A DNA stretch of 64,000 nt from Chloropicon primus (Eukaryota). Location of the stretch: positions 310,001 through 374,000 of the forward strand of contig CP060762.1 in assembly GCA_023205875.1 (NCBI GenBank), in the 5' to 3' direction. Below the pieces are notes generated by a model that saw nothing but the letters and a program-made list of their open reading frames with translations, made no database searches and was not told the DNA's origin. Each line of letters opens with the position of its first letter. Within the stretch, counting starts at the first letter, position 1. Shown piece by piece: positions 2,695 to 41,328 of this stretch. The translations under genes were made by a program, and so were the position numbers.

Positions 2695-2825
2695 GCTGCC
2701 TCTGCGTCGTTGAAGGGTTAGTCTCCTGAACCAAATACCGTTTTGTGTAATCTCATAATCTTTTACAATATCCTTTTCACGTTTTATTTGGCCCCCCCCC
2801 CTCCTTTGAGATTGTCTTGTCGTCG

Positions 2826-3869
2826 TCACGAGAAGAAGCTCTCTCGGTCGTTCAAAAGCACCTTCTGCCGCTTAGGATCTTTCTCCTCGTTGAGCTTTGC
2901 GATCTCACACATCGCTTGCTTGAACCTAGCAATGTCATCCAAGTCCACGAAAGTCACCAGCGGCAGCTTCAACTTTGATATGTCCCCGCCGTGATCTTCG
3001 AGCACGCCGCAACAGAACTCCACGATCCTCTTCGTGCAGTCCTCGATCTTCCCTACGTAGTCTGCCCTCAACTTTTTTCGGCAGTAGCTCTTCATCTCGG
3101 TCAAGTTCGTGAGGAGGAACACCATCGTTGGCCCGTCCTCCACCAAGCAAGGAGGCATGTGCGTCTTGAAGCGCTGGATGTAATCCTCGAACGAGTCCTT
3201 GAGAACCTCGATAGAAGGTATCAGAAATATCACCAAGTTATCAGGCCGTGTGTCGGGTAATGCAGAGTCCTCTTCCTCTTCCGCAATCCCGTCCCTGAAA
3301 TCAAAGTCTGAGTTGAGAATCCTCGTCTTTGCTGGAGCCCAGTCCGCGACTTCACCGTCGTCGAGAACCCCCATGATGTCCTTCACCGTGGTCTTGTACT
3401 CGCTCGTGAAGTAGGTCTCGAACACCTCGTAGTCGAAGTTGCTCGAGGCCTCCAGGAACGTCGCCAGGGCCAAGACCGACTCTTTATGCTCCAGCATCTT
3501 CTGGTTGCTCTCCGATCGAAATATTGCATCCATGTTTTTGCCTTTGAGCTCCACCGAAAGGTTCTCGACGGTGTCCAAGTGATGCTTCATATCCTCGTGC
3601 TCGCTCACCTTCAGCTTGGAGCACTTTTCGAGAAGTTCCTTGATCTTGTGCCGCCTGACGAAGAAGACAACCTTTTGACGCTCTTCGGCATCCAAGGGAT
3701 CCTCGCTGATGCTGATGATGCTCTTGTTGAGAAACCTGACGTGTTGGAAATACCGCTTCAGACACTTTGGCTCCAGCCCAAACACAACTCCCCTGTTGAC
3801 CTGGTCATGATCAATGTTGGAGAAGGAGATGTCCACGTTCTTTCTGCTCCTCCCAAAGCAGCAAAACAT
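2826..3869 (-). CDS. Divergent G-alpha-like pseudo-GTPase (paralog of 13148-14302)
   Basis: Intronless ORF starting MFCCFG; segments colinear with G-alpha (EYKTTVKDIM, LVIFLIP, GPTMVFLLTN); TGTAA on minus strand at 2763-2767. CDS is solid, family call is by eye. Confidence 0.55.
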   Translation of the reverse strand: MFCCFGRSRKNVDISFSNIDHDQVNRGVVFGLEPKCLKRYFQHVRFLNKSIISISEDPLDAEERQKVVFFVRRHKIKELLEKCSKLKVSEHEDMKHHLDTVENLSVELKGKNMDAIFRSESNQKMLEHKESVLALATFLEASSNFDYEVFETYFTSEYKTTVKDIMGVLDDGEVADWAPAKTRILNSDFDFRDGIAEEEEDSALPDTRPDNLVIFLIPSIEVLKDSFEDYIQRFKTHMPPCLVEDGPTMVFLLTNLTEMKSYCRKKLRADYVGKIEDCTKRIVEFCCGVLEDHGGDISKLKLPLVTFVDLDDIARFKQAMCEIAKLNEEKDPKRQKVLLNDRESFFS

Positions 3870-5328
3870 CTTGCAGCAAAACTTTTGTCTTCTCCTTGCA
3901 AAACTTTGTGCCAACACCAAGTTTCGTTTCTGTCTAGCAAGCAAAGCCAGCAAAGCCCTGGGAAGGCGCCTCTCCACTGGGTGGTCTCTCCACTGGGTCT
4001 GTCTCTGGAAGGGAAGGACTTACACAAAGGACACAGACGTCCGGCGGTTGGGTCTGGAGCTTAGGACTGGTTCCCTTGGCATGTCATGAGATCCAGGACG
4101 TCACGGCAATGTGTCACGGCAATGGCAATGCGCGGGCGGATCAATCCGTCGCGAGGCTTTGTCGGCCACTGGACTTGATGAGGCTTCCGCTTCCTTCGAG
4201 GAGAACACGAGAAGAGAGAGCGAGGGACGAAAAGGAAAGGAGAGGATCTTCGTTCTCGTTCGTTCCTTCGTCCTTTTTGCTTAATCAGAACCGACGAGAC
4301 GAGGAGAACTTGAGAAGAACTTTACAACATTGCTCGAGGAGAGGAACACGAACTCAAGCTCTTCCGTGGAGAAGTAATGCCATGGAGAAGAGAAAGAACT
4401 TGAGTTTGGGAGAAGTACTGTCACGAACGCAAAACGAACCTCTGCTCCTCGGATCGGAGGCCCAAACTTCCCAAACTTCCCAAACTTCCCAAACGAAGTT
4501 TCTTAGGGCTTTCTCTCCCTGGAGAAGAAATTTTTGATCAAATACCACAGTAGATCGATCCAAGGGCGGCCACGAGGAAGGTCGGCGATCAGGGCGCCTG
4601 TTGAGGACGAGGGGCGCGGTCAAGGCGGAGGGGAGGAAGACTGCTGGGTGGCGTGTCTCACGAGCTTTCCATAGACACCTCGCTTGACTCGTGGGGCGGT
4701 CTGCTCGGCCTGCGAGAGGCGGTTGACTTGGTTGTTGGGAGAAAAGAAGAGGGAGAGGCAGAGGACCACAGAGTGTTGACGAGGTGGAGGGGTCGAGCGA
4801 GAGGTGGAGGGAGAGCCTTTGCGTGGTGGACGAGGACGCCAGACCAAGCGTCGTGGTGGTGTCGATACGAGTGGGAGACGCCTTGGCAGGACGAACCAGA
4901 GTGAGTGTGTGAGAAAGACTCTTTCGCCTTTGGTTGCCAGCAAAGGGACAAGAATAACAACACAAAAGGATTTGGTTCTGTGTTCAGGGGAGAGGCCTGC
5001 TAGTGCAGCCGTTGCGAGCTCTTGGCATTGCTTGTTGGAGAATTTGATGGAACGCAGCACGCTTGCGCTTGGGGGAGACGGCGGGTACATATGAATCCGT
5101 GCCAAGGACTTCTTACAGGGAAGGAGAGGAGAGTTTGATAGACTAGACCGGGCCACAAGCAAACTTTGGATGCAGAGGGTTTGATCTTTGCGGACTTGGA
5201 CCTCGGCACTTGGTTGAGATTAGCTGGTCGGGAGACAAAGGCGGAAGCTTTGTCCCAAACACAACCAATATATATATATAGAGAGAGGAGAGGGACATAT
5301 TCTTTTGCCCGGGGGTTAGATCGATAGT

Positions 5329-9259: not shown

Positions 9260-12038
9260 TCACGGTTGTCGCAAACTGTTATATATCTCTTTCGTAAACC
9301 TTGTGGACGCCTGCAGTCCGTTGAGATAGGCTTCGAAATTGTGCAGAACGGAATCTCGAGATCCACGTCGTTGGCTCTTCCTCTTTGTGAGCATCCTGAT
9401 CACCCTCTTATTCGCCTTCGCTTTCTCCACCGCTTGCGTCAAAAGTGCAAGCTCCTTCTTGGAATGCTTTGAGCAGGCAAAGACCGGGCTCTTTGCCCGC
9501 GACGAGGATTCCTCGCGATCACTCTCAACAACCTTTGTCTCAATTTTGCGCTTCTCTTTGGCAGCAGCGTCCTCAGTCTGGCACCCTTCGCTCCGCAGCA
9601 CGACCCTCTCCATGTTCTGCTTCTCCATCGTTTTGGAAAGCAGATCCAGCTGCTGCTCCAAGAGCACTTCGCTGAACTTGTCAAATGTCACTTTCATTTC
9701 CTCCTTCAAGTCCTCTTTTGTGACGTACACGTCCTGCTTCAGGACGGACTCCTCCACGGCTGATATCTTGTTCGATATGGCGCCGAGACTCTCGCAGAGG
9801 CTCTGATGCTCCTTTGCCTGCTCGCTGTTCATGAAGTCACAACGCCCCCCAATTCTGGAGAGGCTCTCGGCATGCTCGGCGCTCTTCCTCTCCAGGTTGT
9901 TCCCGATCTCCGCAAGACCATCCGTGATGCACGCTGACACGGATTCAAATCGACCCTCGAGGATCTTCTGAAGACTCTCTGCTACATTTTGGTGGCTCCC
10001 AACAATGTCGGACACGCTCTCAATGATTTCTTTCCCCATCTCCTTCACGGCGGAGTTCTCCCTCTCGCTCGCGTCGCCCTTGCCGGCTTCGATCGAGGTG
10101 CTCACGATCCGAACTGCGCTTGTGATCTCACCCAGCATTTGGACTATCTCGTCGCTTTGCCCTCCCTGGGCTCGCACGAGCTGCGATAACTCGCGGTCCT
10201 TCTCGGCGAGCTGGGCCGTGACAGAGTTCCTGAACTCCTCCAGCTCCTTCGCGACAGCATCGAAGCTTCCGTGTTGCTCGGGGAGGACGGGCTTTGCATC
10301 GGGTAGCACGTCTTGCTTCTTTGACTTGTCCATCAACTTGTTCAATTGTCGCAGTATCTCGTCCTTTTGGCCCGCGACGGTGGAATTAAAATTTTCAGCC
10401 ATCTGAAACTTTTCTCTCGACAGCTCCGACACTCGCGAAATCAGGCTTTCGATTTCCTGCCTCTGGGTCTCCACCACCGATTTCAGTTCCACCTTCTCCT
10501 TCCTTCCTTCCTCCTTTGCGGCTTCCAAGGACTCTGAGAGCCGCTTCGAGTACCTGCGCTCGTTCTCGAGATTGCTCTTGAACTTGTCCACCTGCGACAC
10601 AAGCAAAGTCTTGGCCGCCTCCTCTTTGCCCATCAAGTCGCTCATCATATCGATCTCTCCTTTGAGCTGAGTCAACAAATTGGCCTGGGCCTCGCTCGTC
10701 ACGATCTTGCCCCCCTTCTCCTCGACCCTCTTCGACGAGCCGAGCTCCTCCGCGCTGGACTGAGTTTTTCGAGTCTCCTCCAGGACCTTGGTGCCCATTG
10801 CAGCAACGCACTTCTCCAGTGCCTCGCCTACTTGCTTCTTCAAGCCATCGAATGCGTTCGCTTGCAGCTTCCTCAACCCATCGATGTCCTCCTTTGTCGC
10901 CCTCTCCTCGTCCACGTCAATCACCAAGCGGAGCTGCAGGGGATCAAAAGCAGCTTCTTTCTTCGGCGTGTGGCTCAGCTCTGATCCTGGCACCGCGTAC
11001 CCACCAGGTGCGGGAAGGGGCGAGAGCGTCGCACCGCCATTCAGTCTCTCAATCCTGCGCGGCGATCCCTTCTTCTTCGATCCCTTGGGAGTGCGGGGAG
11101 ACAGGCTTGGGGGAGAAGCGGAGTGCTTGTTTAGCTCTATCGCCGCGAGGGCTCTGCCTCGCTTGGACCTGCTGCTCGAATTCAAGATGGAGCGGGTCGA
11201 AACGGACGTCGTCAAGTTTGAGTCCGAATCCATCGCAGGCGTGCTTCTTCCCGACCGATCTGACACTTCCCTCATCCGCGATTCTCTTGGGCTAGTCTTG
11301 CTGCCTTTGCTCTTCCTCCGCTTGGACGTCGCCGCCGTTGCCTTTCGCCAGGACAAGTCGCTGTTGCTGCTGGTCGTCGTGGAGAGCGACACGTCCGACT
11401 CGCTGTCGCCGAATTCCTTGGAAAACACCTGCCTCTCCTTGTAAAGGGGGTTCTGCTGACTCAACTCGTCGTCCTCGAGGTGTTGCCGCGTGTCCACGTC
11501 GATCGAAGCCAGCCGCAGTGGCGGGAGCACCTTCCTCTCTTTCCCCTTCCCACCGCTGCCCGTCCTGCCCTTGGACCTCTTGCTGTTCGTCACATCTCCC
11601 AGAACTTTAGGCCTGCTGGTCCTCTGTGCCTCTCGCGCAGCTTTCACCTTGTCCTTGTACAAGCCGTCCAGCGGGTGAGCCCACTGGCTCCTCTTCGTGC
11701 GGGAGTCGTAATAAAACCTTCAGAACGAGCTTGGGTTAGTTGAGGCACGGATGCGCCAAGAATGTGTCACGGATGAACCCAGCTTACCTCCTCTTTCCCT
11801 TCTCTGGCGTCCTTCCTTCTTCCCAACCTTTGGGAAGTGGAGCAGAGAGGCCTTCCTGGGCCAAGGACTTGCCGAACACGGCGTACTCGTTCTCCTTCAC
11901 TCCAAGGTACTTTGCATAAGATCGAAGCTCCGACTCTTCGAGGTCCTTCCCTTGCCTCAGACGCTCGGAAGCTGCGTTGATCTCCGCCATCTCCTCGTCG
12001 GGAGACGACAAATCAAAGTGCTGGACCACGGCAGTCAT
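9260..12038 (-). CDS. CEP164-like WW-domain/coiled-coil protein; exons 12038-11788 and 11717-9260
   Basis: Spliced N-terminus YAKYLGV..LAQEGLSAPLPKGWEE..R|FYYDSRTKRSQWAHPLD resembles the CEP164 N-terminal WW module; intron GTAAGC..CTAAC..AAG keeps frame; long coiled coil follows. Confidence 0.72.
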
Positions 12039-13147: not shown

Positions 13148-14302
13148 ATGGACGTTCTGAGGTCGTGCTGCGGTGCACCTGAAGGGTCTAGGTACAAGGC
13201 AAAGGCGGAGAGCCAGGGTTTAGAGGACCGCCCCGTGGTGGCCAACCCTTGGCACGTCAATGTTGGCGTGTTTGGCCCAAACAATTCGGGAAAGAACACC
13301 TTCCTGAAGCAAGTGATGTACACGACAAACGCGATGACGCCTCGCTTGGCCGGCGCTTTGGTGTTCCACGCCAGGAAGCACTGGGTCAGCGAGGTGGTGA
13401 ACCGCCTGAGAGCATTGGAGGACTTTGGAGAAAAGAAGAAAGTCAAGAAGTTTGCCAAGGAGGTCAAAGCGATGAACGAGCTCAAGAGGAGGCTTGAGAG
13501 TCATACGAAGGAGCCTTACGATAAGGCCACGAAGATGATATCCACGTATCACTCTCGTTTATTCAAGCTGTTGGACGGCATCAGGGGTGACATCTTTGAA
13601 CGCGAGGACGAGTACCTGCAGTGCAGGAGTGCCTTCTCCCTGGACCCTCGGCCACCTCCGCTCCAGCTCACCTTCAAGTTCAAGCACAACATCCATCCGA
13701 CCAACTTCAGTCCGGTGGATTACAAGACAGAGAACTTCCAGTTCAAGTTCTTTCACTCGTACTACAATTCCTTGACGGAGCAGATGGAGGTGGAGGACCT
13801 TGGGAGGGAGCTCGACATGATGATCCTCCTCTTCTCTGCGGCGGACGTGATCGAGGAGGGGAAGTTCGAGGAGTCCGTGAGAAACCACAAGTGGATCCTG
13901 GACATTGCCCTGAACGAGTACGGGCCGACCACGATCATCGTCCTGTCGAACATCGACGTGCTAGACGACTTTTGTACCAAGAATAACTTGAGTATCTCGA
14001 AAGAGTTAGAAAAGGCCACGGACTTTCTCGCCGAGGAGTTCAACGACATCAGCGAGAACTTGCCGAAGACGCCGCACATCGAAGCGATGGACCTCACCAA
14101 AGGAAAGTTCTTTTACAGGATTCTCAAGACCATCAACTCCGCTATGGTGGAGGAGGTCGAAGGGATGCCGCTCAAGCAGTACAAGGAGCAGAGGAAGAAG
14201 AACTACCTCAAATCGGTTTACAGCATCGGCGGACGGAGGGGAAGCCAGGTGACGATGTCCAGCGAGTTGGTCAGGGCGAGCTTCGAGGGGGACTTCAATT
14301 GA
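13148..14302 (+). CDS. Divergent heterotrimeric G-protein alpha-like protein
   Basis: N-terminal Cys pair (SCCG), P-loop GPNNSGKNTFLKQ, helical insert, EYLQCR, FQFKFF, MILLFSAAD, TIIVLSNID; TGTAA at 14347-14351. Confidence 0.68.
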   Translation: MDVLRSCCGAPEGSRYKAKAESQGLEDRPVVANPWHVNVGVFGPNNSGKNTFLKQVMYTTNAMTPRLAGALVFHARKHWVSEVVNRLRALEDFGEKKKVKKFAKEVKAMNELKRRLESHTKEPYDKATKMISTYHSRLFKLLDGIRGDIFEREDEYLQCRSAFSLDPRPPPLQLTFKFKHNIHPTNFSPVDYKTENFQFKFFHSYYNSLTEQMEVEDLGRELDMMILLFSAADVIEEGKFEESVRNHKWILDIALNEYGPTTIIVLSNIDVLDDFCTKNNLSISKELEKATDFLAEEFNDISENLPKTPHIEAMDLTKGKFFYRILKTINSAMVEEVEGMPLKQYKEQRKKNYLKSVYSIGGRRGSQVTMSSELVRASFEGDFN

Positions 14303-16520: not shown

Positions 16521-19500
16521 ATGGTTGCAGCGAATCCCAAGGTACTCAAGCAAGAAGCGCGTGAGAGAAAACAGAGGGTTTCGGATCATTTGGTCGAGTT
16601 CATCATCCATGCCGGCGAGGGTGAGGATGCCAGGAAGCAAGTCGAGAGAGTCCTGTCCTCCCAGTCGTCCTCGTCGCCGCACTCGATGCCTTCGATGGGA
16701 GAGGAAATCCGGGAAGCACTGAACACGTTGAGTCGTAATGGGACCACCGCGCTGCACTGTGCCGTCTGGAAGAATGACATCGAGTTGGTCGACCTGCTGC
16801 TGAGCCACGGCGCGAATCCTGACGTCCAGGATAGGGAATCGGGCTGGACGGCGCTCCATCGAGCATGCTACTTCGGTCATCTGATCCTCGTGGTTCGGCT
16901 GCTGAAGGCGAAGGCCAAGGTGAACCTGGAGGACAGGAAGGGGAGGACGGCGTTTGATTTGCTTTCTCACGAGGTGACGCCGCTCATTGAGACGACAGAG
17001 GGGGGAGAGGTGTTCTCCTGGGGCATGGGGACAAACTTCCAGCTCGGGACTGGCTGTATGTATGAGCAAAACATGCCTACCCCCGTGACGGCGTTCTGCC
17101 TGGGCGACGACAAGGAGGAGGACTCAAGCCAAGAGAGGGTCTCTCAGGTGTCTTGTGCAAAATATCACAGCTGCGCTGTGACGACTTCGGGTCAGTTGTA
17201 CACGTTTGGCTTTGGTAGAGGGGGAAGGCTGGGCCACGAAGACTCTCATGTTCACAGCGGGATGCATGCTGTTCTCGAGCCGAGGGTCGTGAGAAGTCTC
17301 CTGAAGGTCAAGGTGACCATGGTGGCAGCGGCGAAGCACCACACGGTGTGCCTCGCGGCGGGAGACGTGTACACATGGGGCTCAAACAAGGATTTCAGGT
17401 TGGGGTATACTGGTGTGGACTCTCAGCCGACGCCGAGAAGGGTGGCCTCGATAAAAGCTAATGTGCTCTCGATCACGGCGGCGAACAAGCACTCGGGGGC
17501 AGTGACTTCCTCGGGAGACCTCTTGACGTGGGGATCCAACCACAAGGGCCAGCTGGGGTACGGGACCACCGAGTCAGCTTCGAATGCGACGCCTAGGATT
17601 GTCGAGGCCCTGAAGTCTGGAGTGACGAAAGCAAGCGCTTCTAAGAATCACACCATTGTCCTGCTGAGAGACGGAGAGGTTTGGACGTTTGGTCACAAGA
17701 TCACAACTCCTCAGAAAGTTGCCTTCAACTCCGTCCTGCCAAATCGCAGCAGTGGGGAGAAGAGGATCGAGTTCCACGACGATCACCTGGCCATCTTCAG
17801 GCCACACATGGTCGAGGTTGCAGCCGGTACGGCGCATTCCACAGCGATCAGCAGTCTTGGTGTCGTGTACGTCTGGAACTCATTCGACCCGAGTCTAACC
17901 GCTTGGCAAGTGAGAATCCCTGGCGTCGCGTTGTCGGCGTCGTCGGCCAAGGAGATGACTTGCGTCTGTACAGAATGCGGAAACGTGTACGCTTTCGAGG
18001 GAAAAGCGAGGTGCCAGAGGGAGTACGAAAAGTCGGTTGACGTCAGCAGGGTTCGAATCAGAAGAGCCTCTGGGGTCGCCGTTGGGGAAAAGCATTCTCT
18101 TGCGATTCAGAAAATCTGGTATCCACCTCTGATTCAGAGCTCCGATCGGCGCGAGGAGGTATCTGTTGTCGCGGCGGAGTGGGAGTGCCAGGGATTTGCG
18201 GACGACGAGTTGAATCTCGCTTGGAGCAAGATGGATCTTACGGGGATCCCTGTGCCCAGCGCAATAGAGAGATCCGACGAGGAAGAGGAAGGGGACGAGA
18301 AAAAGCCAGTCTTCATACCATCGCTGCACGAGATGTGCCAATCGAAGATAGCGGAGAGCTGCGTCAACACCAGGGTGCTTTGCTCCTTGATAGAGTTCGC
18401 GGAGATGTACAGGGCATTTGGTTTGAAGGCTTTCTGTTCCAAGATGATGATCGCCAACCTTGACGTCGTGGCCGCGGTTCGAGGGTCGCTCCAGTCTCAC
18501 ATCTCTTTCGAGGAAGTATTGAGCCTGGAGAACATTTTGCCCCAAGCGCGTATTTCAGAAACCAAGGGCAAGGTCTTGCAGCTCGATTTGGGCGCAGAAT
18601 CTCGCAGGGCAGGGCACCTCGTGAGGAGGTTGTACCAGCGCTCGACGACGTCCAGAATTGCTCCCGCATTTGGTGGGGAAGCGATGGAGTTGGCGGACCC
18701 GATTTTGTCCATCTACAAGAAGAAGAAAAAGAAGAAGAAGAGAAGGAATGAGAAGGACCACGCTCAAGAGACTTCCGTGGCTTCCCCGATTGTCTGGGCA
18801 GATCTGGAGGATGACGACTTTGTTGTCGAGGCTCCGCCGACTCCCCCTGCCCCTGCCCCGGCGCCAGTCCCCGCCCCCACCCCGGTCCCAGCTGTGAGCA
18901 AGGGAAAGCCAAAGTTGAGGAAAGGCTTGCTGCGGGAGTTCCTGGAGGGTGGCCTGGAAAGCAAAACATCCAAGAAGCCCAACCTCATGCCAGATGAGAA
19001 GTACAATTACACAAAATGGAAACTGGAGAAGGAGTGCGACTTCCCTTCCCTGGCCGCCGGGCCAAGCAGCAGGAAGGGAAAGGCAAGAAGTGCGCCGAAG
19101 AGCACGAGCTTATCGTCCATCATGGCGGAGGAGCAGAAGAAGCAGAGGGAGGAGCTCAGCAGGCAGAGCCTCGAGAAAAACTTTTTCGGCTTTGGTGGCT
19201 GGTCCCCAAGCCAGTCGGAGCTCCCAGACTTCAAGCGGATTCAGCAAGAGCAGCTTGATCTTTGGAAAGCCACTAAAAACAGTCTGGAGGACGTTGGCGG
19301 GTCTCCCTCAGGCTGGCTGATCGAGGACAAGCCTCTCCCGAACTTTCAGGCGATCTTAGACGAGGAGTCGACCCAGGAGCAGCAGCAAGTGAAGGGTCCA
19401 TCGACACCGGGGGCTTTGGAGACCCCTGCTTCGACGAAGAAGAAAAGGAGGCGCCCAAGGAAGAAGAAGAATGCTGTGGGCGACGACGCGGCCGAGTCGT

Positions 19501-19691
19501 TTCCCGGCCCGGGTGGAAACCCCAAAGGCTCCCCCAAGCAGGGGAAGGACAAGGGAAACAAGAAGGACAAGGGAAGCAAGCCAAGGAAGAAAAGCAATGG
19601 AAAGAAAGATCCTCAGCTCCGCAGTAAAACGAAAGTTAAGGCAGCGCAAACCGCAAACGGCAGCAACAATCGCGCCACTGCTTGCGCCTGA
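16521..19691 (+). CDS. Ankyrin + RCC1-repeat protein, IBTK-like, with Lys-rich disordered C-terminus
   Basis: GTTALHCAV and ESGWTALHRACYFG ankyrin repeats; VFSWGMGTNFQLG, LYTFGFGRGGRLG, VYTWGSN RCC1 repeats. Confidence 0.88.
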   Translation: MVAANPKVLKQEARERKQRVSDHLVEFIIHAGEGEDARKQVERVLSSQSSSSPHSMPSMGEEIREALNTLSRNGTTALHCAVWKNDIELVDLLLSHGANPDVQDRESGWTALHRACYFGHLILVVRLLKAKAKVNLEDRKGRTAFDLLSHEVTPLIETTEGGEVFSWGMGTNFQLGTGCMYEQNMPTPVTAFCLGDDKEEDSSQERVSQVSCAKYHSCAVTTSGQLYTFGFGRGGRLGHEDSHVHSGMHAVLEPRVVRSLLKVKVTMVAAAKHHTVCLAAGDVYTWGSNKDFRLGYTGVDSQPTPRRVASIKANVLSITAANKHSGAVTSSGDLLTWGSNHKGQLGYGTTESASNATPRIVEALKSGVTKASASKNHTIVLLRDGEVWTFGHKITTPQKVAFNSVLPNRSSGEKRIEFHDDHLAIFRPHMVEVAAGTAHSTAISSLGVVYVWNSFDPSLTAWQVRIPGVALSASSAKEMTCVCTECGNVYAFEGKARCQREYEKSVDVSRVRIRRASGVAVGEKHSLAIQKIWYPPLIQSSDRREEVSVVAAEWECQGFADDELNLAWSKMDLTGIPVPSAIERSDEEEEGDEKKPVFIPSLHEMCQSKIAESCVNTRVLCSLIEFAEMYRAFGLKAFCSKMMIANLDVVAAVRGSLQSHISFEEVLSLENILPQARISETKGKVLQLDLGAESRRAGHLVRRLYQRSTTSRIAPAFGGEAMELADPILSIYKKKKKKKKRRNEKDHAQETSVASPIVWADLEDDDFVVEAPPTPPAPAPAPVPAPTPVPAVSKGKPKLRKGLLREFLEGGLESKTSKKPNLMPDEKYNYTKWKLEKECDFPSLAAGPSSRKGKARSAPKSTSLSSIMAEEQKKQREELSRQSLEKNFFGFGGWSPSQSELPDFKRIQQEQLDLWKATKNSLEDVGGSPSGWLIEDKPLPNFQAILDEESTQEQQQVKGPSTPGALETPASTKKKRRRPRKKKNAVGDDAAESFPGPGGNPKGSPKQGKDKGNKKDKGSKPRKKSNGKKDPQLRSKTKVKAAQTANGSNNRATACA

Positions 19692-25351: not shown

Positions 25352-25773
25352 GGGGATTCACCGCGCACAAGAACAAGCACACACGCACGCACACGCACAC
25401 TTTGTTAAGCATACAACAGCAATAATCCATCATGCATCGATCCACATCAATACACAAAAGTCCTCTCTGCCGCTCCATTTTTCCAAGTGATGGCTCTTTG
25501 GAAAGAGCAAGAGACCGTGGTCCCCGCCAATCCCCAGCATCTCCGCCCCTTGGCCCTCCTCCCCCCCACCATCACCACCAACCTAATGCCCAAGGCCACC
25601 ATCCTCCTGCCCTCCTGGTCCTCCAGTTTGGCGCTGGATTTTTTGAAAGCGAAAGAGAGAGAGAGCGAGAAAGGGCGGGAGAGCGAGGAGAGCAGGGACG
25701 AGGGGCATCTCTTCGTGCGCGAGGGACAGACGCCGAGGGACACTGCATCGCACCCTTCGTCGTCATTACCACC

Positions 25774-28700
25774 ATGGCTCGTACAGTAAAAGTTTTGAAG
25801 CGCGAGGAGATCATGTCTGTGAAGAGTCCCAAGGACTTGAAGAAGATGGCAAAAAAACACAAACTCAAGAACATCGCAGGGACAGTATCTGTCCTCCAGA
25901 GGAAGCTATGCGAGCACTTTGGTTACGAAGCGGCGGAGGCAGCGGCAGCGGAAGCTCCGTCTGGTGCAGAGGTCTCTCCCGCGAGGATGGAAGCCAGCGG
26001 TGAGGAGAATGCGGTGACCCAACAAGCGTCTCTGGATGTTTTGGATGGTGAAGGTAATGCAGGGCTGGGAGGAGAGGAGGGAGCGGAGATGGGCCAAGGG
26101 CCAAGCGGTGGTGGGGACGGCGCCTCCGGGGAGGGGGAGGGGAATACTGCGACGACCCCGAAGTCCCAAAAGAAAGAGAAGAAGGAGAAGAAGAAGAAGA
26201 AGGACAAGAAGGAGAAGGAGGAGAAGAAGCGAAAGGAGAGGGAGGCCAAGAGTGGGACAGAGGGCAAGCCCAAGAGCAAGAAGATGAAAGAGTCAGGGGA
26301 GGCGGAGAGGTCGGTCAAGGCATCCGCAAAGGAGAAACCAAAGCGGCCGGCATCTGTCTACATTCTCTTCCGTGCAGAGGAAAGGCCTGTCATAATGAAG
26401 GACAACCCAGCACTCGGCCACTCAGAAGTGGATCAAGAACTGAGCAAGCGCTGGAAGGAGATCTCGCCGACGAGGAAGGAGGCTCTGGAGTCCAAGTATT
26501 CAGAGGCCAAAGAAGAGTACAGCAAGGAACTCGCCAAGTGGACAAAGTGGAAAGAGGAAAATGAGCCGGATAAGCCAAAGCCGAAGAGTAGCGACAAGCC
26601 CTCCAAAAGCGGGAAGCCAAAACGAGCGGCATCTGCTTACCTTCTCTTTATTGGAGAAGAGAAGCCTGCGATTCTGAAGGAGAATCCGTCGCTTACTTTT
26701 GGCGAATTGAGCAAAGAGGCAGGCAAGCGCTGGAAGGAGATCTCTCCGGATCGCAAGAAGGTGTTTGAGTCCAAGGCTGCAGAGGCCAAGGAGCAGTACG
26801 ACAAGGACCTCGCCAAGTGGAAACAGGAACACGAGCCTGAGAAACCAGCTGAAGAGGATGAGCCAGTTGGGGATGGCAAGGGGTCCGAGGGGGATAATCC
26901 ATCGACGAGTGGCAATGCCTCGAAGAGTAGCGACAAGCCCTCCAAAAGCGGGAAGCCAAAGCGAGCGGCATCTGCTTACCTTCTGTTTATTGGAGAAGAG
27001 AAGCCTGCGATTCTGAAGGAGAATCCGTCGCTTACTTTTGGCGAATTGAGCAAAGAGGCAGGCAAGCGCTGGAAGGAGATCTCTCCGGATCGCAAGAAGG
27101 TGTTTGAGTCCAAGGCTGCAGAGGCCAAGGAGCAGTACGACAAGGACCTCGCCAAGTGGAAACAGGAACACGAGCCTGAGAAACCAGCTGAAGAGGATGA
27201 GCCAGTTGGGGATGGCAAGGGGTCCGAGGGGGATGATCCATCGACGAGTGGCAATGCCTCGAAGAGTAGCGACAAGCCCTCCAAAAGCGGGAAGCCAAAG
27301 CGAGCGGCATCTGCTTACCTTCTGTTTATTGGAGAAGAGAAGCCTGCGATTCTGAAGGAGAATCCGTCGCTTACTTTTGGCGAATTGAGCAAAGAGGCAG
27401 GCAAGCGCTGGAAGGAGATCTCTCCGGATCGCAAGAAGGTGTTTGAGTCCAAGGCTGCAGAGGCCAAGGAGCAGTACGACAAGGACCTCGCCAAGTGGAA
27501 ACAGGAACACGAGCCTGAGGCGAAGCCAGGGAGCATTGCGAGTACCGTGCATACAGATACAATCAAAAACATGTCTTCAAGGGAGGTGAGCAAGGCTTTG
27601 AAGGACCAGAAGCTGTCCAAAGAGGGCACATTAGACGACAGGAGGCAGCGCCTGCTTGAGCATCATGGATTTGGAAAGGAAACCGCCGGATCGGGCGAGG
27701 ATTCAAAAGCATCAAAGGGCAAAACCGATGGCGGAAGCCAGGAGAAGAAGGAGAAGAAGGAGAAGAAGGAGAAGAAGGAGAAGAAGGAGACGAAGGAGAA
27801 GAAGGAGACGAAGCAGAAGAAACCTAAGAAACCTGAGAAGGTCCAGGGGGTTGAGGAAGCTTTGCAAGCAAAAGATGCGAAGGCGACCGAAAGCGGAAAG
27901 AGGGGATCTGGCAAGAGGAAAAGGGCTGCGGATGCAAATGCAAATGATGGGTACCAGTGCACTCACACCTCAGTGAGGGACACTTACTTCAAAGGCTGCG
28001 CGTGGTCCCCTTGCGGAACTAGCCTCCTGGCTGCCAGCAACGACAACTGCGTGAGAGCATACAACACGCCCAGGCAGACCGAAGATTCCAATGACGTGCT
28101 GGGAGAATCAATGACCTTCGCTGTCGGAGGCCTGATTTACGACTATGCTTGGTACCCGAAAATGAATGCGGACAATCCGTCAACTTGCTGTTTCGCTGTG
28201 ACTTCCAAGGACAAGCCTATCCAGTTGGTGAATGTGGCAACAGGGGTGGTGAATTGCGTGTACAAAGTCCACGATTCGAAGGACGAGCTCGTTTCCGCGA
28301 ACAGCGTGGCTTTCCACCCCAACGGCGCCATTGTCGTTGGGGGTTTCAAGTCTTCAATCACTATTTGGAATGTTGACAGGCCAGGGAAAGACTGCCACGG
28401 CACGTACACGACTGCGAATCACGGCCAGAATGAGATCATCTCGACCATGGACTTTAGCAGGCTGTGCCCGAACGTCTTGGCTTGTGGGTGCTACGACGGC
28501 ACCGTGGGACTTTATGACATGAACTCTTGGGCAAAGCTTGACGTGGTCTGTGGTCACAAGGGGGGCGTCACCCAAGTTCAGATTTCCAAGGACGGTCAAT
28601 TCTTGTACACTGGGGCTCGGAAAGACCCTGTCATCCACTGCTGGGACATAAGGATGCTAGAAAGCCCCGTGTACAGCCTTTCGAGGCCAGGGGTGGAGAA

Positions 28701-29049
28701 GACGAACCAAACGATCGGGTTTGACATCATGCCCATGAATTCTCATCTCGCGAGCGGGAGCGCGGATGGCAGCGTCCTTCTGTACGATCTGACCAAGGGC
28801 GAGCAGGTCGCAACCTTCGAGGCATCCTCCGATGCAGTCAATGGCGTCAGCATTCATCCTTACACCCCCTTGCTGGCAACAGCTTCTGGGGCGAGAGAGT
28901 TCGACATCCCTTTCGACTCCTCGGACGAGGACGTTCCCGCGACTTCGAACAGCAAGGGCGACAGCAACTGCCTGAAAATTTGGAAACCCGCCGTGCCCTA
29001 CGAGACCGAGAACTGGTACGAGGGAATCAAGAAAAGGGTCGAATTCTAA
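25774..29049 (+). CDS. SAP-like + 4 HMG-box + TCAB1/WRAP53 (WDR79)-type WD40 fusion protein
   Basis: PKRPASVY / PKRAASAYLLF..WKEIS HMG boxes; KGCAWSPCG, IYDYAWYP, GHKGGVTQ, LYTGARKD, TNQTIGFD as in TCAB1; one continuous ORF. Confidence 0.85.
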   Translation: MARTVKVLKREEIMSVKSPKDLKKMAKKHKLKNIAGTVSVLQRKLCEHFGYEAAEAAAAEAPSGAEVSPARMEASGEENAVTQQASLDVLDGEGNAGLGGEEGAEMGQGPSGGGDGASGEGEGNTATTPKSQKKEKKEKKKKKDKKEKEEKKRKEREAKSGTEGKPKSKKMKESGEAERSVKASAKEKPKRPASVYILFRAEERPVIMKDNPALGHSEVDQELSKRWKEISPTRKEALESKYSEAKEEYSKELAKWTKWKEENEPDKPKPKSSDKPSKSGKPKRAASAYLLFIGEEKPAILKENPSLTFGELSKEAGKRWKEISPDRKKVFESKAAEAKEQYDKDLAKWKQEHEPEKPAEEDEPVGDGKGSEGDNPSTSGNASKSSDKPSKSGKPKRAASAYLLFIGEEKPAILKENPSLTFGELSKEAGKRWKEISPDRKKVFESKAAEAKEQYDKDLAKWKQEHEPEKPAEEDEPVGDGKGSEGDDPSTSGNASKSSDKPSKSGKPKRAASAYLLFIGEEKPAILKENPSLTFGELSKEAGKRWKEISPDRKKVFESKAAEAKEQYDKDLAKWKQEHEPEAKPGSIASTVHTDTIKNMSSREVSKALKDQKLSKEGTLDDRRQRLLEHHGFGKETAGSGEDSKASKGKTDGGSQEKKEKKEKKEKKEKKETKEKKETKQKKPKKPEKVQGVEEALQAKDAKATESGKRGSGKRKRAADANANDGYQCTHTSVRDTYFKGCAWSPCGTSLLAASNDNCVRAYNTPRQTEDSNDVLGESMTFAVGGLIYDYAWYPKMNADNPSTCCFAVTSKDKPIQLVNVATGVVNCVYKVHDSKDELVSANSVAFHPNGAIVVGGFKSSITIWNVDRPGKDCHGTYTTANHGQNEIISTMDFSRLCPNVLACGCYDGTVGLYDMNSWAKLDVVCGHKGGVTQVQISKDGQFLYTGARKDPVIHCWDIRMLESPVYSLSRPGVEKTNQTIGFDIMPMNSHLASGSADGSVLLYDLTKGEQVATFEASSDAVNGVSIHPYTPLLATASGAREFDIPFDSSDEDVPATSNSKGDSNCLKIWKPAVPYETENWYEGIKKRVEF
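26582..27519 (+). repeat. 339-bp coding tandem repeat, ~2.8 copies, each encoding an HMG box plus linker
   Basis: Units start at 26582, 26921 and 27260; only about three substitutions seen by eye. Confidence 0.95.
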
Positions 29050-35667: not shown

Positions 35668-37036
35668 CTATTTTTCCACCACTCCTCCTCCCTGTCCGCC
35701 GGCATGGACGTCGCAAAGCTTCGAGTACTCATCTTGGAGACGCTTGGTGACCTCCCCGCGCTTTCCTCCTCCAATCTCGCGTCCATCCACTTCCACCACA
35801 GGGATGGCACCAGCAAACGTCCCGGTCACAAAGCACTCGGAGGCAGAATAAACCTCGGTCACCGAGAAGTTTCGTTCCTTGGTCTGAATACCGCACCGCT
35901 CCGCGAGGTCGAGCATGTTCTGCCTGGTAATTCCGTGAAGCTGGTACTCTGTTGTCGGCGCAATGAGTTGCCCCCCGCAAACCATGAAAAAGTTGGTGCT
36001 GTTACAAGTCGCAACAAAGCCTTGAGGATCCAACATGAGCGCCTCGTTTACGCGCGCTTGCTCTGCTTGGATACAAGCCGCGATGCACTGGTGTTTCGAC
36101 AACGAGTTGATCATCGGATCCTGCGTGTCGGGCCTTGCTCTTCTGACGAACGAGGTGATCAGCTTAATGCCATTTGTCTTCACATCCTCCGTGACCGCCT
36201 TTCTCTCAGGGATGATCACGATCGTCGGCATGCCCAACGTCGCTTTCGGGGCTTGGTACGGCGTCAACTTTTCACCCCTGGACACGATCAGCCGTATGTG
36301 AACCCCGGATTCCATCCCATTGGCGACGCATGTCTCCTCGACCATTGTTTTGAGCTCATCCTTGGTGAGATCGATGGACATGGCAAGGGCTTTGGCGCCT
36401 TGGTAGAGACGGGCAACGTGCTCGTCCCAGAACAGAAGTTTCGACTTGTGCAATCGAATTCCTTCCCAGACGCCGTCCCCCAGAACGAAGCCCGCGTCCA
36501 AAACCGAAACCTTGGCCAGGCGCCTCGGTACCAATGAAAAATCCAGTGTCACGCCGTTCCTCACGCCGATCAGAATCGAAGCGTTCCGATCATCTTGCTT
36601 GAAGGCATGAGTCCCCCCTCGTACTGCCGCCTCCTGGTCCACGGGCGAGGATGCCTCAAGAACGTCGCGCGCACGGACCGCGCGGGCCTTCAAGAGGCTC
36701 CAGAACGGGTGAACATCCTCCAGCAGGTCAACAATATTTTTGCTCACGGCCTTGGCCATCTTGTGAGATCCAACGCTCTTCGAGAATCCTGTGCTCCTCC
36801 TCGAGTTGCGATACCAAAGATCGGCCCAGCAGCCCTCGTAATCCTTTGGCCCAGCTGTCCAAGCCAGCATTCTTTCATCGAAGGCAACGCCGACGTGACT
36901 CGTCATCGCCTTGAGCATCCGAGCTGGACTCTCGAGCACGTCCTCGGACACAAGCACGAGGCGGTGGAGGGGAGGAGGAGGAGGAGGAGGAGGAGGAGGA
37001 GGAGGAGGAGGAGGAGGATGCGCTCGCTCGCGCGCT
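35668..37036 (-). CDS. 3' part of sulfotransferase-like/class IV PLP aminotransferase (plant BCAT-like type); 5' boundary uncertain
   Basis: VSVLDAGFVLGDGVWEGIRL, EALMLDPQGFVATCNSTNFF, LHGITR, ECFVTGTFAG; begins mid-domain (LVSEDVLESP..MLAWTAGPK). Confidence 0.85.
36966..37018. repeat. (GGA)n microsatellite close to the insertion junction
   Basis: Direct reading. Confidence 0.95.
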
Positions 37037-37060
37037 CTGCTTCACCCCTCGAGGCCTCAA

Positions 37061-39011
37061 GGTTGTCCTGCTAACCCTCATCGCGGAGAGGCGAGAGCGA
37101 CTCTATCCAAAAAGTGAAAATCGGAATCCACCTGGCGCTCAATCATGATGGATGAGAAGGGAGGGGGCATGATGGTTGGGGAGAGGAGTGGTAATGTGTG
37201 GTGGTTTATGCCTACCTACCTACCTATCCACTTCTTCTTCTTTTTACCGGCTTATGGAACGTGTTGTTTCCGCTCTTCATGCAAGGAGGCAGGATCAGGT
37301 GGACAAGAGAACAAAACCAGGAGAGGTGACTCTCGCAGCAACGACTGACTGCTGTCCACAATTAGGGCTCCAGAGGCTTTATCAGCGCGGGGGGCGACCT
37401 CATCTAAACAAGGAGAGAGAGAGGGGGGCGTGTTATATATGTATTGTTTCTATATATAAAAAAGATATGAAATATATGATTGGGAGAGAGACAGAGAGAG
37501 ACATCGGTTGCTCGAGGAGAAGATGAAGAAGACGAGAAAAAAAAAGCATGATGAAAGCTAAGCTGCGGAATGGAAGTACTTGTCGGTCCACGTGTCTACC
37601 TTCTTACGCGCGTGCGGGTTCGGCTGCACGCCAATCTTCGACGCGTGCAGGTGCAGGCACGTCTTCCCAGGCTGCGACTCCGATCGCAGGTACCCATTCG
37701 CCTCCAGCTTTGCCGCGGGGATGATCCAAAAGTATGCTTTGCCTTCCACCCACGCCACCGCCACTAGCTCGTCGAACGCCCCTGCCGGGTAAGGATCTTT
37801 CAGCTCCTTGCCCGCCTCGTCACGCCCGGCGTAGGTGTACAGGTTGCACATAAACCCGGCGGCGCCGTTAGACGCCGCGCGCGCCGTCTTGAACTGCTGG
37901 CGCGTCGTCGCATCCTTCAGCAGGTCGACTTGGGTGTTCTGTCCCTCGGGGAAGGCGTAGCGGTGCTTTGGGAAGCTCGCCTTGAACGCGTCGATGCCGC
38001 GCATCTCGAGCGCGTGGGCCTCGGACGCGAAGTCGTGCCGCGCGGCGTGCTCGGTGACGGTCGTCCACCGACACAGATGGGCCTGGGCCTGGGCCTGGGC
38101 CTGGGCCTGGGCCTGCTCGCTCAGCCATTGCACGAGCGCGGCGAGGTTGAGGCCACGCGCGAGCGCGAGCTCACAGTTCTTGCGGAGGGGGGTGACGCTC
38201 AGGTCCAGCTTGCCGCGCTCGTTCAGCGCGTTGCCGTTGTACACCCACGCGTCGCCGACGTCGCACCGCCAGCACACCACACACATCCCCGAGTAGCCGG
38301 TGACGTTGTGGAAGTACCACGTATTCGGGCTACCCTTCACGGTGCCGCTCGTCGTCTTGAGCTGCACCGGCAGCCACGCGTCCTCCTCGCTCAGGCGGAG
38401 GAGCACGTCGGCTTTCGTGCCGTCGTTTAGCACGAGCGCCGCGCTCCCGGGGATGGTCGCCTCCCATCTGGCGACGAGGGCGAGCGCCACTTCGCGCTCC
38501 GTGGCGGAGCTCCGGCCGTAGATCGCCAGGTCGCGGGCGCGCTTCACCGCGAGCGCGGCTCGGTCGGTCTCCCTCTTCTTGAGTTTGCCCGCGCGGTACG
38601 CCTCGAGGGCGGCGACGGCCTCCGCCACGGTGGCGAAGTATTCCTTGGGGCGACCGATACGCACTCCGTACTTCTTCTTCTTGCGGCGCTTGTCAATGAA
38701 CACCCCCTTGGGCATGGTCGCGCTCCGTCTTCTGTCCCTCGGCCTCGACGCCCGTCCGTTACTTTTAAGTTTTTCGGTCCGCTTCTCCTCCCGCCGATTT
38801 TCAAAATGCCCCCCGCCAAAAGCCATGGCGGGAAAAGGACGGGCGATGGAGGTGTTGGAGGGTTTGAAGGCGAAGGTGTCGGTGGATGCGACCGAGGGGG
38901 AGATCCAGCTGGCGAGGAAGGAGGTGCGGCAGCACGTGGAAGCCCTCGACCGAGACTTGCTGAGGCAGGCCGCGGCTGTCTGTGCGACGACCTCAGGGAG
39001 AGGGGGTTGTC
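37061..39011. mobile_element. Candidate insertion (or large nested intron) splitting the aminotransferase-like gene, bounded by direct repeat GGTTGTC
   Basis: GGTTGTC at 37061-37067 and 39005-39011; contains nuclease-like ORF and a truncated divergent ORF; no terminal inverted repeats or LTRs seen. Confidence 0.45.
37558..38715 (-). CDS. AP2-like DNA-binding domain + tandem PD-(D/E)XK-type nuclease-like protein
   Basis: PKGVF..KYGVRIG..YFATVAEAVAA; DGTKADVLL..WLPVQLKTT; NTQVDLL..RQQFKTA; (QA)n linker; visibly more GC/CG-rich than neighbouring genes. Confidence 0.6.
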   Translation of the reverse strand: MPKGVFIDKRRKKKKYGVRIGRPKEYFATVAEAVAALEAYRAGKLKKRETDRAALAVKRARDLAIYGRSSATEREVALALVARWEATIPGSAALVLNDGTKADVLLRLSEEDAWLPVQLKTTSGTVKGSPNTWYFHNVTGYSGMCVVCWRCDVGDAWVYNGNALNERGKLDLSVTPLRKNCELALARGLNLAALVQWLSEQAQAQAQAQAQAHLCRWTTVTEHAARHDFASEAHALEMRGIDAFKASFPKHRYAFPEGQNTQVDLLKDATTRQQFKTARAASNGAAGFMCNLYTYAGRDEAGKELKDPYPAGAFDELVAVAWVEGKAYFWIIPAAKLEANGYLRSESQPGKTCLHLHASKIGVQPNPHARKKVDTWTDKYFHSAA

Positions 39012-39446
39012 AAGCTTCGAGTACAGCTGCACCAGGGCCGGGTAGCACGACTCCTCGAGAGTGACCGGTGCCCCGCTGTCAAACGAATCGAGGGACTTCT
39101 CCACTCGGTTCCTGATGAGAAAGATGTGAAAGCACCTTCGATCTGTCACCAACTTGCTGTTCTCAAGTCCTTCGAGCTGCTTGCCCACGTGCTTCAGGAA
39201 AATGATTTGCTTGCCGTTCGACATCGACATGATTTTGTCCACGACTTTTGCTCCGTCCGTCTCCATGGACTGAAAGAGCTGCTTCTTGTACGGTCTCTCA
39301 ATTTCAGGATGGCGTACCAACCACTGGGCATACAAGGGCTCATCTATCACGAGAGTATCTTCTCTCTGAGCCCAGCTGTACATCATAGACGTCGAGCACG
39401 ACCTCGGGGCTGCCCACAAGTTCACAATCACTGGCGGACTCTCCAT
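38992..39446 (-). CDS. 5' part (P-loop sulfotransferase-like domain) of the split aminotransferase-like gene
   Basis: LWAAPRSCSTSMMYSWAQR..VIDEPLYA, IFLKH, HIFLIRN; similarity ends at LYSKLDN. Confidence 0.85.
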
Positions 39447-39741
39447 CCTTCCCAACCTTCGCTCCCTTCCCCCTCTCCCCTTCTCCTCCTCCCCTTGGCT
39501 CCCTTCTCCTCCCCTTGAACTCCTCTTCGTTCCCCTTGGCTCCCGCCAAAAAGAAGGAAGGAGGAGGAAGAGGGAGGCGGCGTTATAGAGAGAAGGACGG
39601 GAGGAGGAAGGGGGTTTCCAGGACGACGAAGAACGAAGCTACGTCTCGACATCTTTCCAACGAGTGACCACTCGAAGGGTCTGGCGAAGGGGAACGCATT
39701 GATTCATTGATTGATTCGTCCTCCCAAGCTTGAAGCTTGGG

Positions 39742-40428: not shown

Positions 40429-41328
40429 TCACCCAGCAGAGAAGGGGTTGAAGGGTCTCACCTCGAGCTCAGTCACCATCCTCTGGCTCAGAATTTTCGT
40501 GTACTCCGTCAGAGTGTGGATCTCCCGCGGCCTGTAAAGCTCCGCCGCCTTCACGTCCAACCCATCGGACTGCAGCAAAATGTCCCTCGCGGGAACCAGG
40601 TGCCTGTGCCAGAACTCCTCCAGCGCGGCGTATACGTAGCCCCAGTACTCCCTGTCCCTCTCCACCACGTACACGCAGCTCCCGCCCTCAATCGTCCAGC
40701 AGTAAAAGTACGTGGTCTGCATGTCGAAGATCTCCATCAGGCTCTGCACTTGCGCCATGTAGTACCAAGGCGCCCTGTCCCAAGGCTTCATCTCCTTGGG
40801 ATAGCCGCGGTTGTAGGGGCACTTGATCTCCAGCAGGGCATCCATGTCCGGAATTACCCCGTCAGGCGCAGCCCCGAGCCAGGTCTTCCCCTCCTCCCTG
40901 TGCAGGCGGACCAAGCCTCCGGCCTCCTTGTCCAGAAGCGCGAGCCCGTCCTTGCCGGCGTCCAGGACGTTGTACCCCGTCAGCGCCGAGAAGTCGTCCC
41001 GAGCCCGAGGCTCGTGCTTGGTCCCCCACCTCGTCGCGTCATTCCCTCGGAAGGGCTCCCTCAGGCCCAACTTCTCCTCCCACACTTGCTCCCTTCCCCC
41101 CTTCCACCAACCCAAGGCGTTCGCCAGCTGGGACCCAGTCAGCCTGCTCGCTCGCCTGATGGGGACGACAACCTTGTCCTTGGCGCCCTCCTCCTCGCCG
41201 CCGCCCCCCAAGTCGGAGGACGAGCTCCAACACCTCCCCTCACGCCTCGCACCCCTGCCGTTCGCCTGCACCCTCGCCCGGGTGAACGCCACCAATGACC
41301 TCGCTCTCGAACCGCAGCACCCTCTCAT
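40429..41328 (-). CDS. YqaJ/lambda-exonuclease-like nuclease with organellar-type presequence
   Basis: LTGSQ, ATRWGTKHEPRA, WLGAAPDG, LLEIKCPY, YYMAQVQ; Arg-rich N-terminus. Confidence 0.88.
   Translation of the reverse strand: MRGCCGSRARSLVAFTRARVQANGRGARREGRCWSSSSDLGGGGEEEGAKDKVVVPIRRASRLTGSQLANALGWWKGGREQVWEEKLGLREPFRGNDATRWGTKHEPRARDDFSALTGYNVLDAGKDGLALLDKEAGGLVRLHREEGKTWLGAAPDGVIPDMDALLEIKCPYNRGYPKEMKPWDRAPWYYMAQVQSLMEIFDMQTTYFYCWTIEGGSCVYVVERDREYWGYVYAALEEFWHRHLVPARDILLQSDGLDVKAAELYRPREIHTLTEYTKILSQRMVTELEVRPFNPFSAG

Follow-up and report, generated by a model that had tools for sequence, protein, structure and literature searches.

In a 64,000-nucleotide stretch of the genome of the green alga Chloropicon primus (contig CP060762.1 of GenBank assembly GCA_023205875.1, positions 310,001 to 374,000 of the forward strand; hereafter the window, whose numbering is used throughout), we found a gene, here called gene A, that very probably descends from the heterotrimeric G-protein alpha subunit (G-alpha). 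Judged by its sequence, the product would be a G-alpha-derived pseudoGTPase and not a working G-alpha. We file it in this way because it lacks the architecture of the plant XLG proteins, departs from the canonical G2 and G3 motifs and stays below the Pfam cut-off.

Conservation of gene A

Gene A is a single open frame on the forward strand, from an ATG at 13148 to a TGA ending at 14302, and encodes 384 amino acids without an intron. An earlier reading made from the DNA letters only (the sequence-only reading) had described this frame correctly, and every peptide quoted there is present in the translation (P0001). The protein is a 100% match to QDZ23005.1 of C. primus (A3770_09p55230, annotated as 'hypothetical protein'), an identity that also confirmed the proposed chlorophyte host. 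Relatives at ~59–71% identity fell into four further 90% clusters (word-indexed homologue search, 4,534 candidates), one of which contains WZN65736.1 of C. roscoffensis; beyond these five clusters, word-indexed searches returned nothing.

Compared with its orthologue in a metagenome locus (L002), gene A had a ratio of nonsynonymous to synonymous substitution rates (dN/dS) of 0.16 over 375 codons; in the same comparison the flanking flippase gene gave 0.06 and the coiled-coil gene 0.30. GC content at third codon positions was 0.80, similar to that of neighbouring genes. On the strength of the low dN/dS, the four further clusters and the neighbour-like base composition, gene A is a real gene under purifying selection. 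It is scarcely credible that it is a decaying leftover without function: its motifs are lost and its published RNA depth is 0, but the frame is intact in five clusters, selection is evident and the gene order is conserved in L002.

The features of gene A are as follows, with residue numbers and the basis of each assignment in brackets.

13148..14302, +: gene A, a G-alpha-derived protein that appears to lack a GTP switch (open reading frame, orthologues, PF00503, Foldseek, VIA, dN/dS)
13166..13171, +: Cys7-Cys8, candidate S-acylation site; no Gly2, and no predicted helix in residues 1–36, at low confidence (sequence, orthologues)
13274..13300, +: G1 or P-loop, GPNNSGKNT (43–51); GxxxxGK intact, Mg-binding Ser/Thr replaced by Asn50 (orthologue alignment, consensus)
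13340..13639, +: predicted all-helical domain (65–164) after the P-loop; its last helix is EYLQCR (155–160) (models, PF00503 match in orthologue P0007)
13652..13705, +: putative linker 2 or switch-I equivalent (169–186), no invariant Arg (Gi-alpha-1 spacing, alignment to P0041 and P0055; register inferred, ± ~2 residues)
13754..13768, +: G3 site, HSYYN (203–207) in place of DxxGQ (HSYY in 5/5 orthologues; after a predicted strand, 198–201/205)
13946..13957, +: G4 site, SNID (267–270), Lys gone and Asp270 present (orthologue alignment; after a predicted strand, 261/262–267)
14081..14092, +: G5 site, EAMD (312–315), Ala313 present (orthologue alignment, G5 consensus)
14171..14245, +: conserved basic helix after alpha-5 (342–358) and RRGS (363–366) (alignment, models)

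Predicted fold and probable G-alpha ancestry

Two AlphaFold2 models of gene A, built from 5 and 6 sequences, both contained a helical domain at residues 65–164, after which strands and helices follow in the order found in a G domain, with an additional helix at 342–358. Five helices were predicted within residues 65–164, mostly at a predicted local distance difference test score (pLDDT) of 70–90, and the ~100-residue helical insert described in the sequence-only reading thus holds as a prediction. As modelled, a Ras-like domain carrying a helical domain in the G-alpha position is a highly probable fold. When the models were searched with Foldseek, all 43 and all 39 matches listed were G-alpha chains (by title and length), in alignments of ~300–350 columns that took in both domains (E 5e-5 to 2e-3; best 4.6e-5 and 5.5e-5). 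The proposed combination of AlphaFold and Foldseek therefore pointed exclusively to G-alpha among the matches listed, from models of low confidence.

A VIA structure comparison against 48,161 chains gave a related picture for the second model. The top match was Gi-alpha-1 (2gtp_A; Z 12.5, root-mean-square deviation (rmsd) 3.0, 155 aligned residues), the longest alignments were to Gs, Entamoeba and rice G-alpha (255, 245 and 239 residues; rmsd 9–10), and 49 of the 50 matches listed were GTPases or fusions with one, going by their titles (in one case by the protein's identity). The next matches, at Z 10–11, were Hbs1, Rag, Arl and Roc domains.

Profile evidence came from the orthologues. PF00503 was the top Pfam match in two of the five A orthologues (E 1.3e-4 and 3.1e-4; 21.6 and 20.4 bits, both below the Pfam gathering cut-off of 48.8 bits) and spanned the P-loop and the helical region, with positions 22–135 corresponding to residues 36–151 of P0007. 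The profile check suggested earlier thus gave matches below the cut-off in two orthologues, with P0001 unmatched. In the A orthologues the distance from G1 to the linker is 118–122 residues, and the helical domain of G-alpha, between G1 and G2, is ~120 residues long (PMC8584482). By features in the ESM Atlas, all four matches listed for gene A were G-alpha clusters (0.87–0.88), the top one being XLG-like and level, at 0.88, with clusters of animal G-alphas; we treat this as a lead only. The G-alpha derivation claimed in the sequence-only reading is supported by the orthologue PF00503 matches, by Foldseek on both models and by the VIA match to Gi-alpha-1.

Several observations weigh against this ancestry. 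P0001 itself had no Pfam family near the cut-off, and seven sequence and profile searches of the PDB (P0001, P0007, P0041 and P0055; profiles A1, A3 and A4) did not turn up a G-alpha at E 10. Both models are of poor quality, with a mean pLDDT of 49 and 60 and the P-loop below 50; the strand preceding the P-loop is misplaced in the second, and the Foldseek template-modelling (TM) scores to G-alpha were just 0.2–0.3. For the first model, the best VIA match was Gq at Z 8.1, tied with helical bundles. The comparison contained no canonical G-alpha sequence, the motif registers were set by spacing and the tree held no GPA1 or XLG.

Part of this evidence could also be explained if gene A were another P-loop GTPase (of Rag, Roc, EngB/AIG1-like or translation-factor type) that had gained its helical insert independently. 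The Rag, Hbs1, Arl and Roc matches lie within ~2 Z units of the best, the Atlas matches of the paralogue described below are of EngB/AIG1 type, and the PDB sequence searches lacked a G-alpha match. We consider this origin very improbable: the Foldseek matches listed were all G-alpha and covered both domains, the PF00503 match includes the P-loop and the helical region, the insert has the position and length of that in G-alpha, and annotated C. primus G-alphas were available as a source for duplication.

Nucleotide-binding motifs

Motif consensus sequences were taken from PMC8584482 and Gi-alpha-1 residue numbers from bioRxiv 10.1101/795088. GxxxxGK is present in all five A orthologues; the residue after the P-loop Lys is Asn in three, Ala in one and Thr in one, leaving GK(S/T) in just one orthologue. 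At G3, all five read HSYY(N/K/R) and none DxxGQ, as had been noted for gene A from the sequence, and HPT is also invariant. G4 reads (S/T)(N/H)ID instead of (N/T)KxD. The degradation of NKxD described in the sequence-only reading is thus correct for the Lys, which is lost, but not for the Asp, which is kept in all five. G5, after the last strand, reads (E/Q)AMD instead of (T/G)(C/S)A, with the Ala present in all five and the adjacent residues changed.

EYLQCR had earlier been equated with DVLRTR, as if the switch-I Arg were kept; this proved to be a misalignment. Arg178, the catalytic residue of Gi-alpha-1, comes 132 residues past Lys46 and 26 ahead of Gln204 (numbers from bioRxiv 10.1101/795088). 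Both spacings lead to residue 181 of gene A (Lys49+132; Asn207−26), whereas Arg160 of EYLQCR is 47 residues ahead of Asn207 and falls within the helix predicted to close the helical domain. When the family is aligned, EYLQCR directly precedes the Y(E/K)xTxxDI/L linker that the relatives carry. Across the five orthologues, position 179 is K/R/R/K/N and position 181 is N/T/K/R/H, with no invariant Arg at 179–181; an invariant Thr185 is close by.

As the alignments read, the lost residues (G1 Ser/Thr, G2 Arg, and G3 Asp, Gly and Gln) would be those serving Mg2+ and the gamma-phosphate, and the kept ones (Lys49, Asp270 and Ala313) those serving the beta-phosphate and the guanine ring. Because the Mg2+ and gamma-phosphate residues are the ones lost, gene A is likely to have no GTP-driven switch; because the beta-phosphate and guanine-ring residues are the ones kept, there is an even chance that its protein still binds GDP. 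GDP can be held by G-alpha without Mg2+. The loss of DxxGQ in all five orthologues and of the G1 Ser/Thr in four supports the pseudoGTPase proposed in the sequence-only reading. The further suggestion of nucleotide independence may be too strong for gene A, where 5/5 orthologues keep the Lys of the P-loop, the Asp of G4 and the Ala of G5; it fits the paralogue and the tandem protein described below better.

Nucleotide independence of gene A itself, as a G-alpha-derived scaffold that binds no nucleotide, is in our view rather unlikely. It would accommodate the loss of G3, of the G1 Ser/Thr in 4/5 and of the G4 Lys, and it has parallels: the paralogue (gene B) and the tandem repeats (P0041) also lack G1 and G4, yet gene B is under selection, and the equivalent GPA1 mutant S52C has been described as nucleotide-free and still partly functional. 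However, GxxxxGK, Asp270 and Ala313 are invariant in all five orthologues at 57–71% identity, and a nucleotide-free protein would have no need of them. At the other extreme, gene A might still switch, either by using another nucleotide or through an active site rebuilt from His203, Tyr205/206 and a basic residue at 179. The invariance of HSYY, HPT and the P-loop Lys would suit such a site, but there is no Mg2+ Asp, no Gly-Gln and no invariant Arg, the P-loop Lys is followed by Asn or Ala in 4/5, and confidence in both models is lowest in the switch regions. We regard a rebuilt switch as improbable, and prefer a G-alpha-derived protein that has probably lost switching and may retain GDP.

Termini of gene A

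The N-terminal Cys pair described earlier as a possible S-acylation site is indeed present at residues 7–8; CC occurs in four of the five A cluster representatives, the fifth having a single Cys, and also in gene B (below). At the other end, the A orthologues extend 67–73 residues beyond G5, with ~45 extra residues after alpha-5, and four of the five representatives carry RRGS, which we take to be a candidate site for a cyclic-nucleotide kinase. The N-terminal helix and switch II, both G-beta contact surfaces, look altered in gene A, which weighs against the role proposed for it below.

A second paralogue and a tandem protein

A phmmer search of 1.84 billion representatives gave nine matches, one of which was P0041, a metagenomic protein of 1216 residues (E 1e-22, 22% identity). 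Three others (P0045–P0047) were dropped as repeat-driven chance matches, and the remainder were fragments of A proteins. P0041 is made up of 3.5 tandem copies, a half repeat followed by three full ones; the repeats are 34–41% identical to each other, and repeat 3 holds a basic insert of ~60 residues. Nucleotide motifs are absent. The N-terminus may be incomplete, since the protein opens with a half repeat. Each full repeat carries a YEPTxxDIL-type linker, which presumably resembles the G-alpha linker ahead of switch I. The repeat structure recurs, as the P0041 cluster has eight ENA/Logan members; Chloropicophyceae as its source is a guess. A word-indexed search (lengths 668–2128, best 7,994 candidates scored) recovered no close relative but P0041 itself, a metagenome scan with P0041 confirmed 0 of 29 stretches, and a scan of viral contigs with profile A4 confirmed 0 of 71.

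In the metagenome locus L002, a P0041-like frame adjoins the flippase gene, and this led to gene B in the window, ~9 kb from gene A:

2826..3869, −: gene B (P0055; A3770_09p55200), a 347-residue paralogue that starts MFCCFG, with P-loop and G4 lost and an EYKTTVKDI linker kept (homology, dN/dS)

The order gene B (−), flippase (+), coiled-coil (−), gene A (+) is conserved in L002. Matches of gene B to the P0041 repeats had E values from 1e-26 to 1e-12, and its identity to gene A was 16–18% (hhalign E 2e-4). The five A proteins scored 54–65 bits against a profile built from gene B and the repeats of P0041; in controls, 1000 shuffles (720 scored) reached at most 4.2 bits and reversed sequences stayed below 0. 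With a dN/dS of 0.21 over 155 codons, gene B is under continued selection despite the loss of G1 and G4. From gene A through gene B to the tandem protein (C), the nucleotide pocket is lost step by step while selection continues.

The placement of gene B among G-alphas has points against it. The Pfam scan gave no PF00503 match, and in the ESM Atlas gene B matched generic GTPases, MMR_HSR1 and AIG1 (0.82–0.84) and EngB (TM 0.52–0.54 by target), and no G-alpha. Its G-alpha identity would come from its homology to gene A and the linker motif; independent support for a predicted GTPase fold is weak. An unrooted tree (nine rows, with P0056 and the half repeat left out and without canonical G-alpha) only splits A from B and C. 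A prediction of the complex of A and B scored 0.00 (alignments not used, controls not folded) and is no evidence either way.

The reference protein of gene B, QDZ23002.1 (314 residues), lacks residues 40–72 of the 347-residue frame, and the C. primus genome paper (PMC6731263) records an insertion of one base, with an allele frequency of 1, in an 'intron' of gene B. Probably the reference model contains a false intron that spans an error of the assembly. A contig of sequencing run X2 (RNA by guess) covers 2803–3590 of gene B.

Between genes A and B lies a 671-residue coiled-coil protein (9260–11275, −) with no Pfam match and 44% identity in L002; in the published RNA table it is near-silent.

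Other G-protein components in C. primus

The sequence-only reading had seen gene A as a relic in a lineage without G-alpha, and this was not borne out. Supplementary Data 2 of PMC6731263 lists three G-alpha genes: A3770_02p14290, assigned to KEGG orthology (KO) entry GNAO (E 6e-29 to a Klebsormidium protein), and A3770_08p51700 and A3770_08p51710, assigned to GNAQ (E 2e-17 to a Klebsormidium protein). A fourth gene, A3770_03p24060, has the KO of regulators of G-protein signalling (RGS) as a secondary assignment. Since recognisable G-alpha genes are listed in the same species, gene A is an extra, unrecognised paralogue. A3770_08p51700 and A3770_08p51710 (rows 5175–5176) are adjacent and are either a tandem pair or one split gene.

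The premise that model chlorophytes lack G-alpha holds: the table in PMC6731263 shows no match to the C. primus G-alphas in 12 other chlorophytes at E 1e-10. G-protein subunits are stated to be lacking in chlorophytes, sequenced green algae or unicellular algae (PMC3971589, PMC3718340, PMC8584482), and many algae are reported to have lost G-alpha and RGS (PMC11061236).

As to the G-beta and RGS for which a search had been proposed earlier, the annotation rows covered list the RGS-like gene and nothing named as G-beta. The names G-beta, RIC8, phosducin, arrestin and GoLoco are absent from 6,460 annotation rows of ~8,639 genes (ending in chromosome 11 of 20; the rest may contain them), a point against a G-protein partnership. 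RGS and GGL domains had no match at E 1e-5 among the 87 longer frames of the window.

The three WD40 genes of the window (one BING4-like, one fused to HMG boxes and one with a long N-terminal extension) were ruled out as G-beta, at ≤37.8 bits against a cut-off of 150. The HMG fusion (25432–29049, +) is a 1205-residue frame with four HMG boxes, three of them in near-identical repeats, and a C-terminal WD40 propeller.

A survey by Anantharaman from 2011 is cited for 'architectural rearrangements' of G-alpha. In the literature within reach of our search, to which that survey and Mohanasundaram 2022 did not belong, there was no account of G-alpha or G-alpha-like proteins in Chloropicon, nor of tandem G-alpha domains. 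The terms 'G protein', 'G-protein' and 'GTPase' are absent from the main texts of both Chloropicon genome papers.

Expression and possible life stage

The sixth column of Supplementary Data 2 of PMC6731263 gives the average RNA-seq depth. It is 0 for gene A and for all three annotated G-alphas, and at least 1.0 for 84.4% of C. primus genes. That three loci out of four are silent has a P of 0.013 if the loci are independent. In C. primus, meiosis genes are near-silent and the flagellar gene set is almost full though the cells have no flagella (PMC6731263). Among flagellar genes, 17 of the 22 rows listed (of 128 in the file) had a depth below 1.0, as had five of seven genes named as cGMP-dependent kinase. 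Gene A possibly acts in a flagellated or sexual stage.

Other points tell against a stage-specific role. The P value was calculated once the pattern had been seen, the flagellar rows were chosen by search words, and the published RNA libraries were normalised. Expression in culture is seen for gene B and for the RGS-like gene, at depths of 13.0 and 48.4. The silence of gene A may be local, because the neighbouring gene 09p55220 is also near-silent (depth 0.12). Contigs of sequencing runs X1 and X2 (RNA by guess) leave the coding part of gene A uncovered at 95% likeness, which proves nothing.

Comparison with known systems

Canonical G-alphas (PF00503; Gi-alpha-1 2gtp_A, Gs 9u3p_B, Entamoeba 4fid_B and rice 8vgb_A) share with gene A a predicted Ras-like domain, a helical domain between G1 and G2 and a similar length, as well as GxxxxGK, the G4 Asp, the G5 Ala and N-terminal cysteines. 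Gene A differs from them in lacking DxxGQ, the G4 Lys and an invariant switch-I Arg, with the G1 Ser/Thr missing in 4/5. It also has no Gly2 and no predicted N-terminal helix, adds ~45 residues after alpha-5, and stays below the Pfam cut-off, with an identity of 8–16% when aligned by structure. With the annotated C. primus G-alphas it shares the species, the fold family and an RNA depth of 0; those genes are recognised by BLAST and KEGG, whereas genes A and B are annotated as 'hypothetical' and lack a match in 13 algae.

Among plant XLGs, Arabidopsis XLG2 is ~30% identical to canonical G-alpha and has lost the P-loop Lys and the catalytic Arg and Gln; its affinity for nucleotide is 100–1000 times lower, and binding to RGS and G-beta-gamma persists (bioRxiv 10.1101/795088). 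Gene A resembles it in that its G-alpha domain, too, lacks the catalytic pair of Arg and Gln, and XLG2 is likewise a proposed decoy beside canonical G-alpha. In contrast to XLGs, gene A has no large Cys-rich N-terminal extension, its P-loop lying at residue 39–49 in all five orthologues (43 in P0001), and it is far more diverged, yet it keeps the P-loop Lys that XLG2 lost. Class i pseudoGTPases such as the microsporidian ArlEM are also conserved, probably acylated GTPase folds with mutated G motifs, but ArlEM belongs to the Arf family and has no helical domain. Switch-dead G-alphas were already known from XLGs, and G-alpha has been in the public annotation of C. primus since 2019; new here are a second, more degenerate paralogue (gene B) and a tandem G-alpha-like architecture.

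Proposed role of gene A

We propose that the gene A product is a lipid-anchored, non-switching and probably GDP-holding decoy or adaptor beside the annotated G-alphas, possibly in a flagellated or sexual stage, a proposal for and against which we see the balance as equal. The protein would be S-acylated at its N-terminal Cys pair and so anchored to the membrane, and fixed in an off-like, probably GDP-bound shape. There it would hold partners of ordinary G-alphas, as proposed for XLG2. Its activity would be set by expression and perhaps also by phosphorylation of Ser366 in the C-terminal RRGS, and not by a receptor; activation by a receptor is unlikely because ~45 extra residues follow alpha-5. 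That partners are held at the membrane under such control is plausible but somewhat doubtful. In this scheme gene B and the tandem protein would act as scaffolds that bind no nucleotide.

A wider conjecture, for which we hold out little hope, is that Chloropicophyceae, in a cryptic stage of gametes or flagellates, use a G-alpha signalling module that has no G-beta-gamma. Its switch-dead paralogues (a GDP-holding A, an empty B and a 3.5-fold tandem C) would serve as adaptors and scaffolds under the control of cGMP kinase and not of receptors.

Chloropicon, near the base of the core chlorophytes, has annotated G-alphas and at least two paralogues too diverged for Pfam, and for this reason maps of G-alpha loss built on Pfam or BLAST cut-offs may overlook such genes in other algae. 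The series of A, B and tandem C is a natural test of G-alpha function without GTP, which is an open question for plant XLGs. The shared silence of gene A and the annotated G-alphas could make them markers for a predicted, unseen flagellated stage.

Other genes of the window

Three further loci stood out. A protein with ankyrin and RCC1 repeats is encoded at 16521–19691 (+). On the reverse strand, sulfotransferase-like pieces are followed by a class IV aminotransferase domain (35671–39638, −), possibly as one intron-split fused gene. A YqaJ-like viral recombinase/exonuclease domain (PF09588, E 1e-17) lies within the algal chromosome at 40432–41442 (−).

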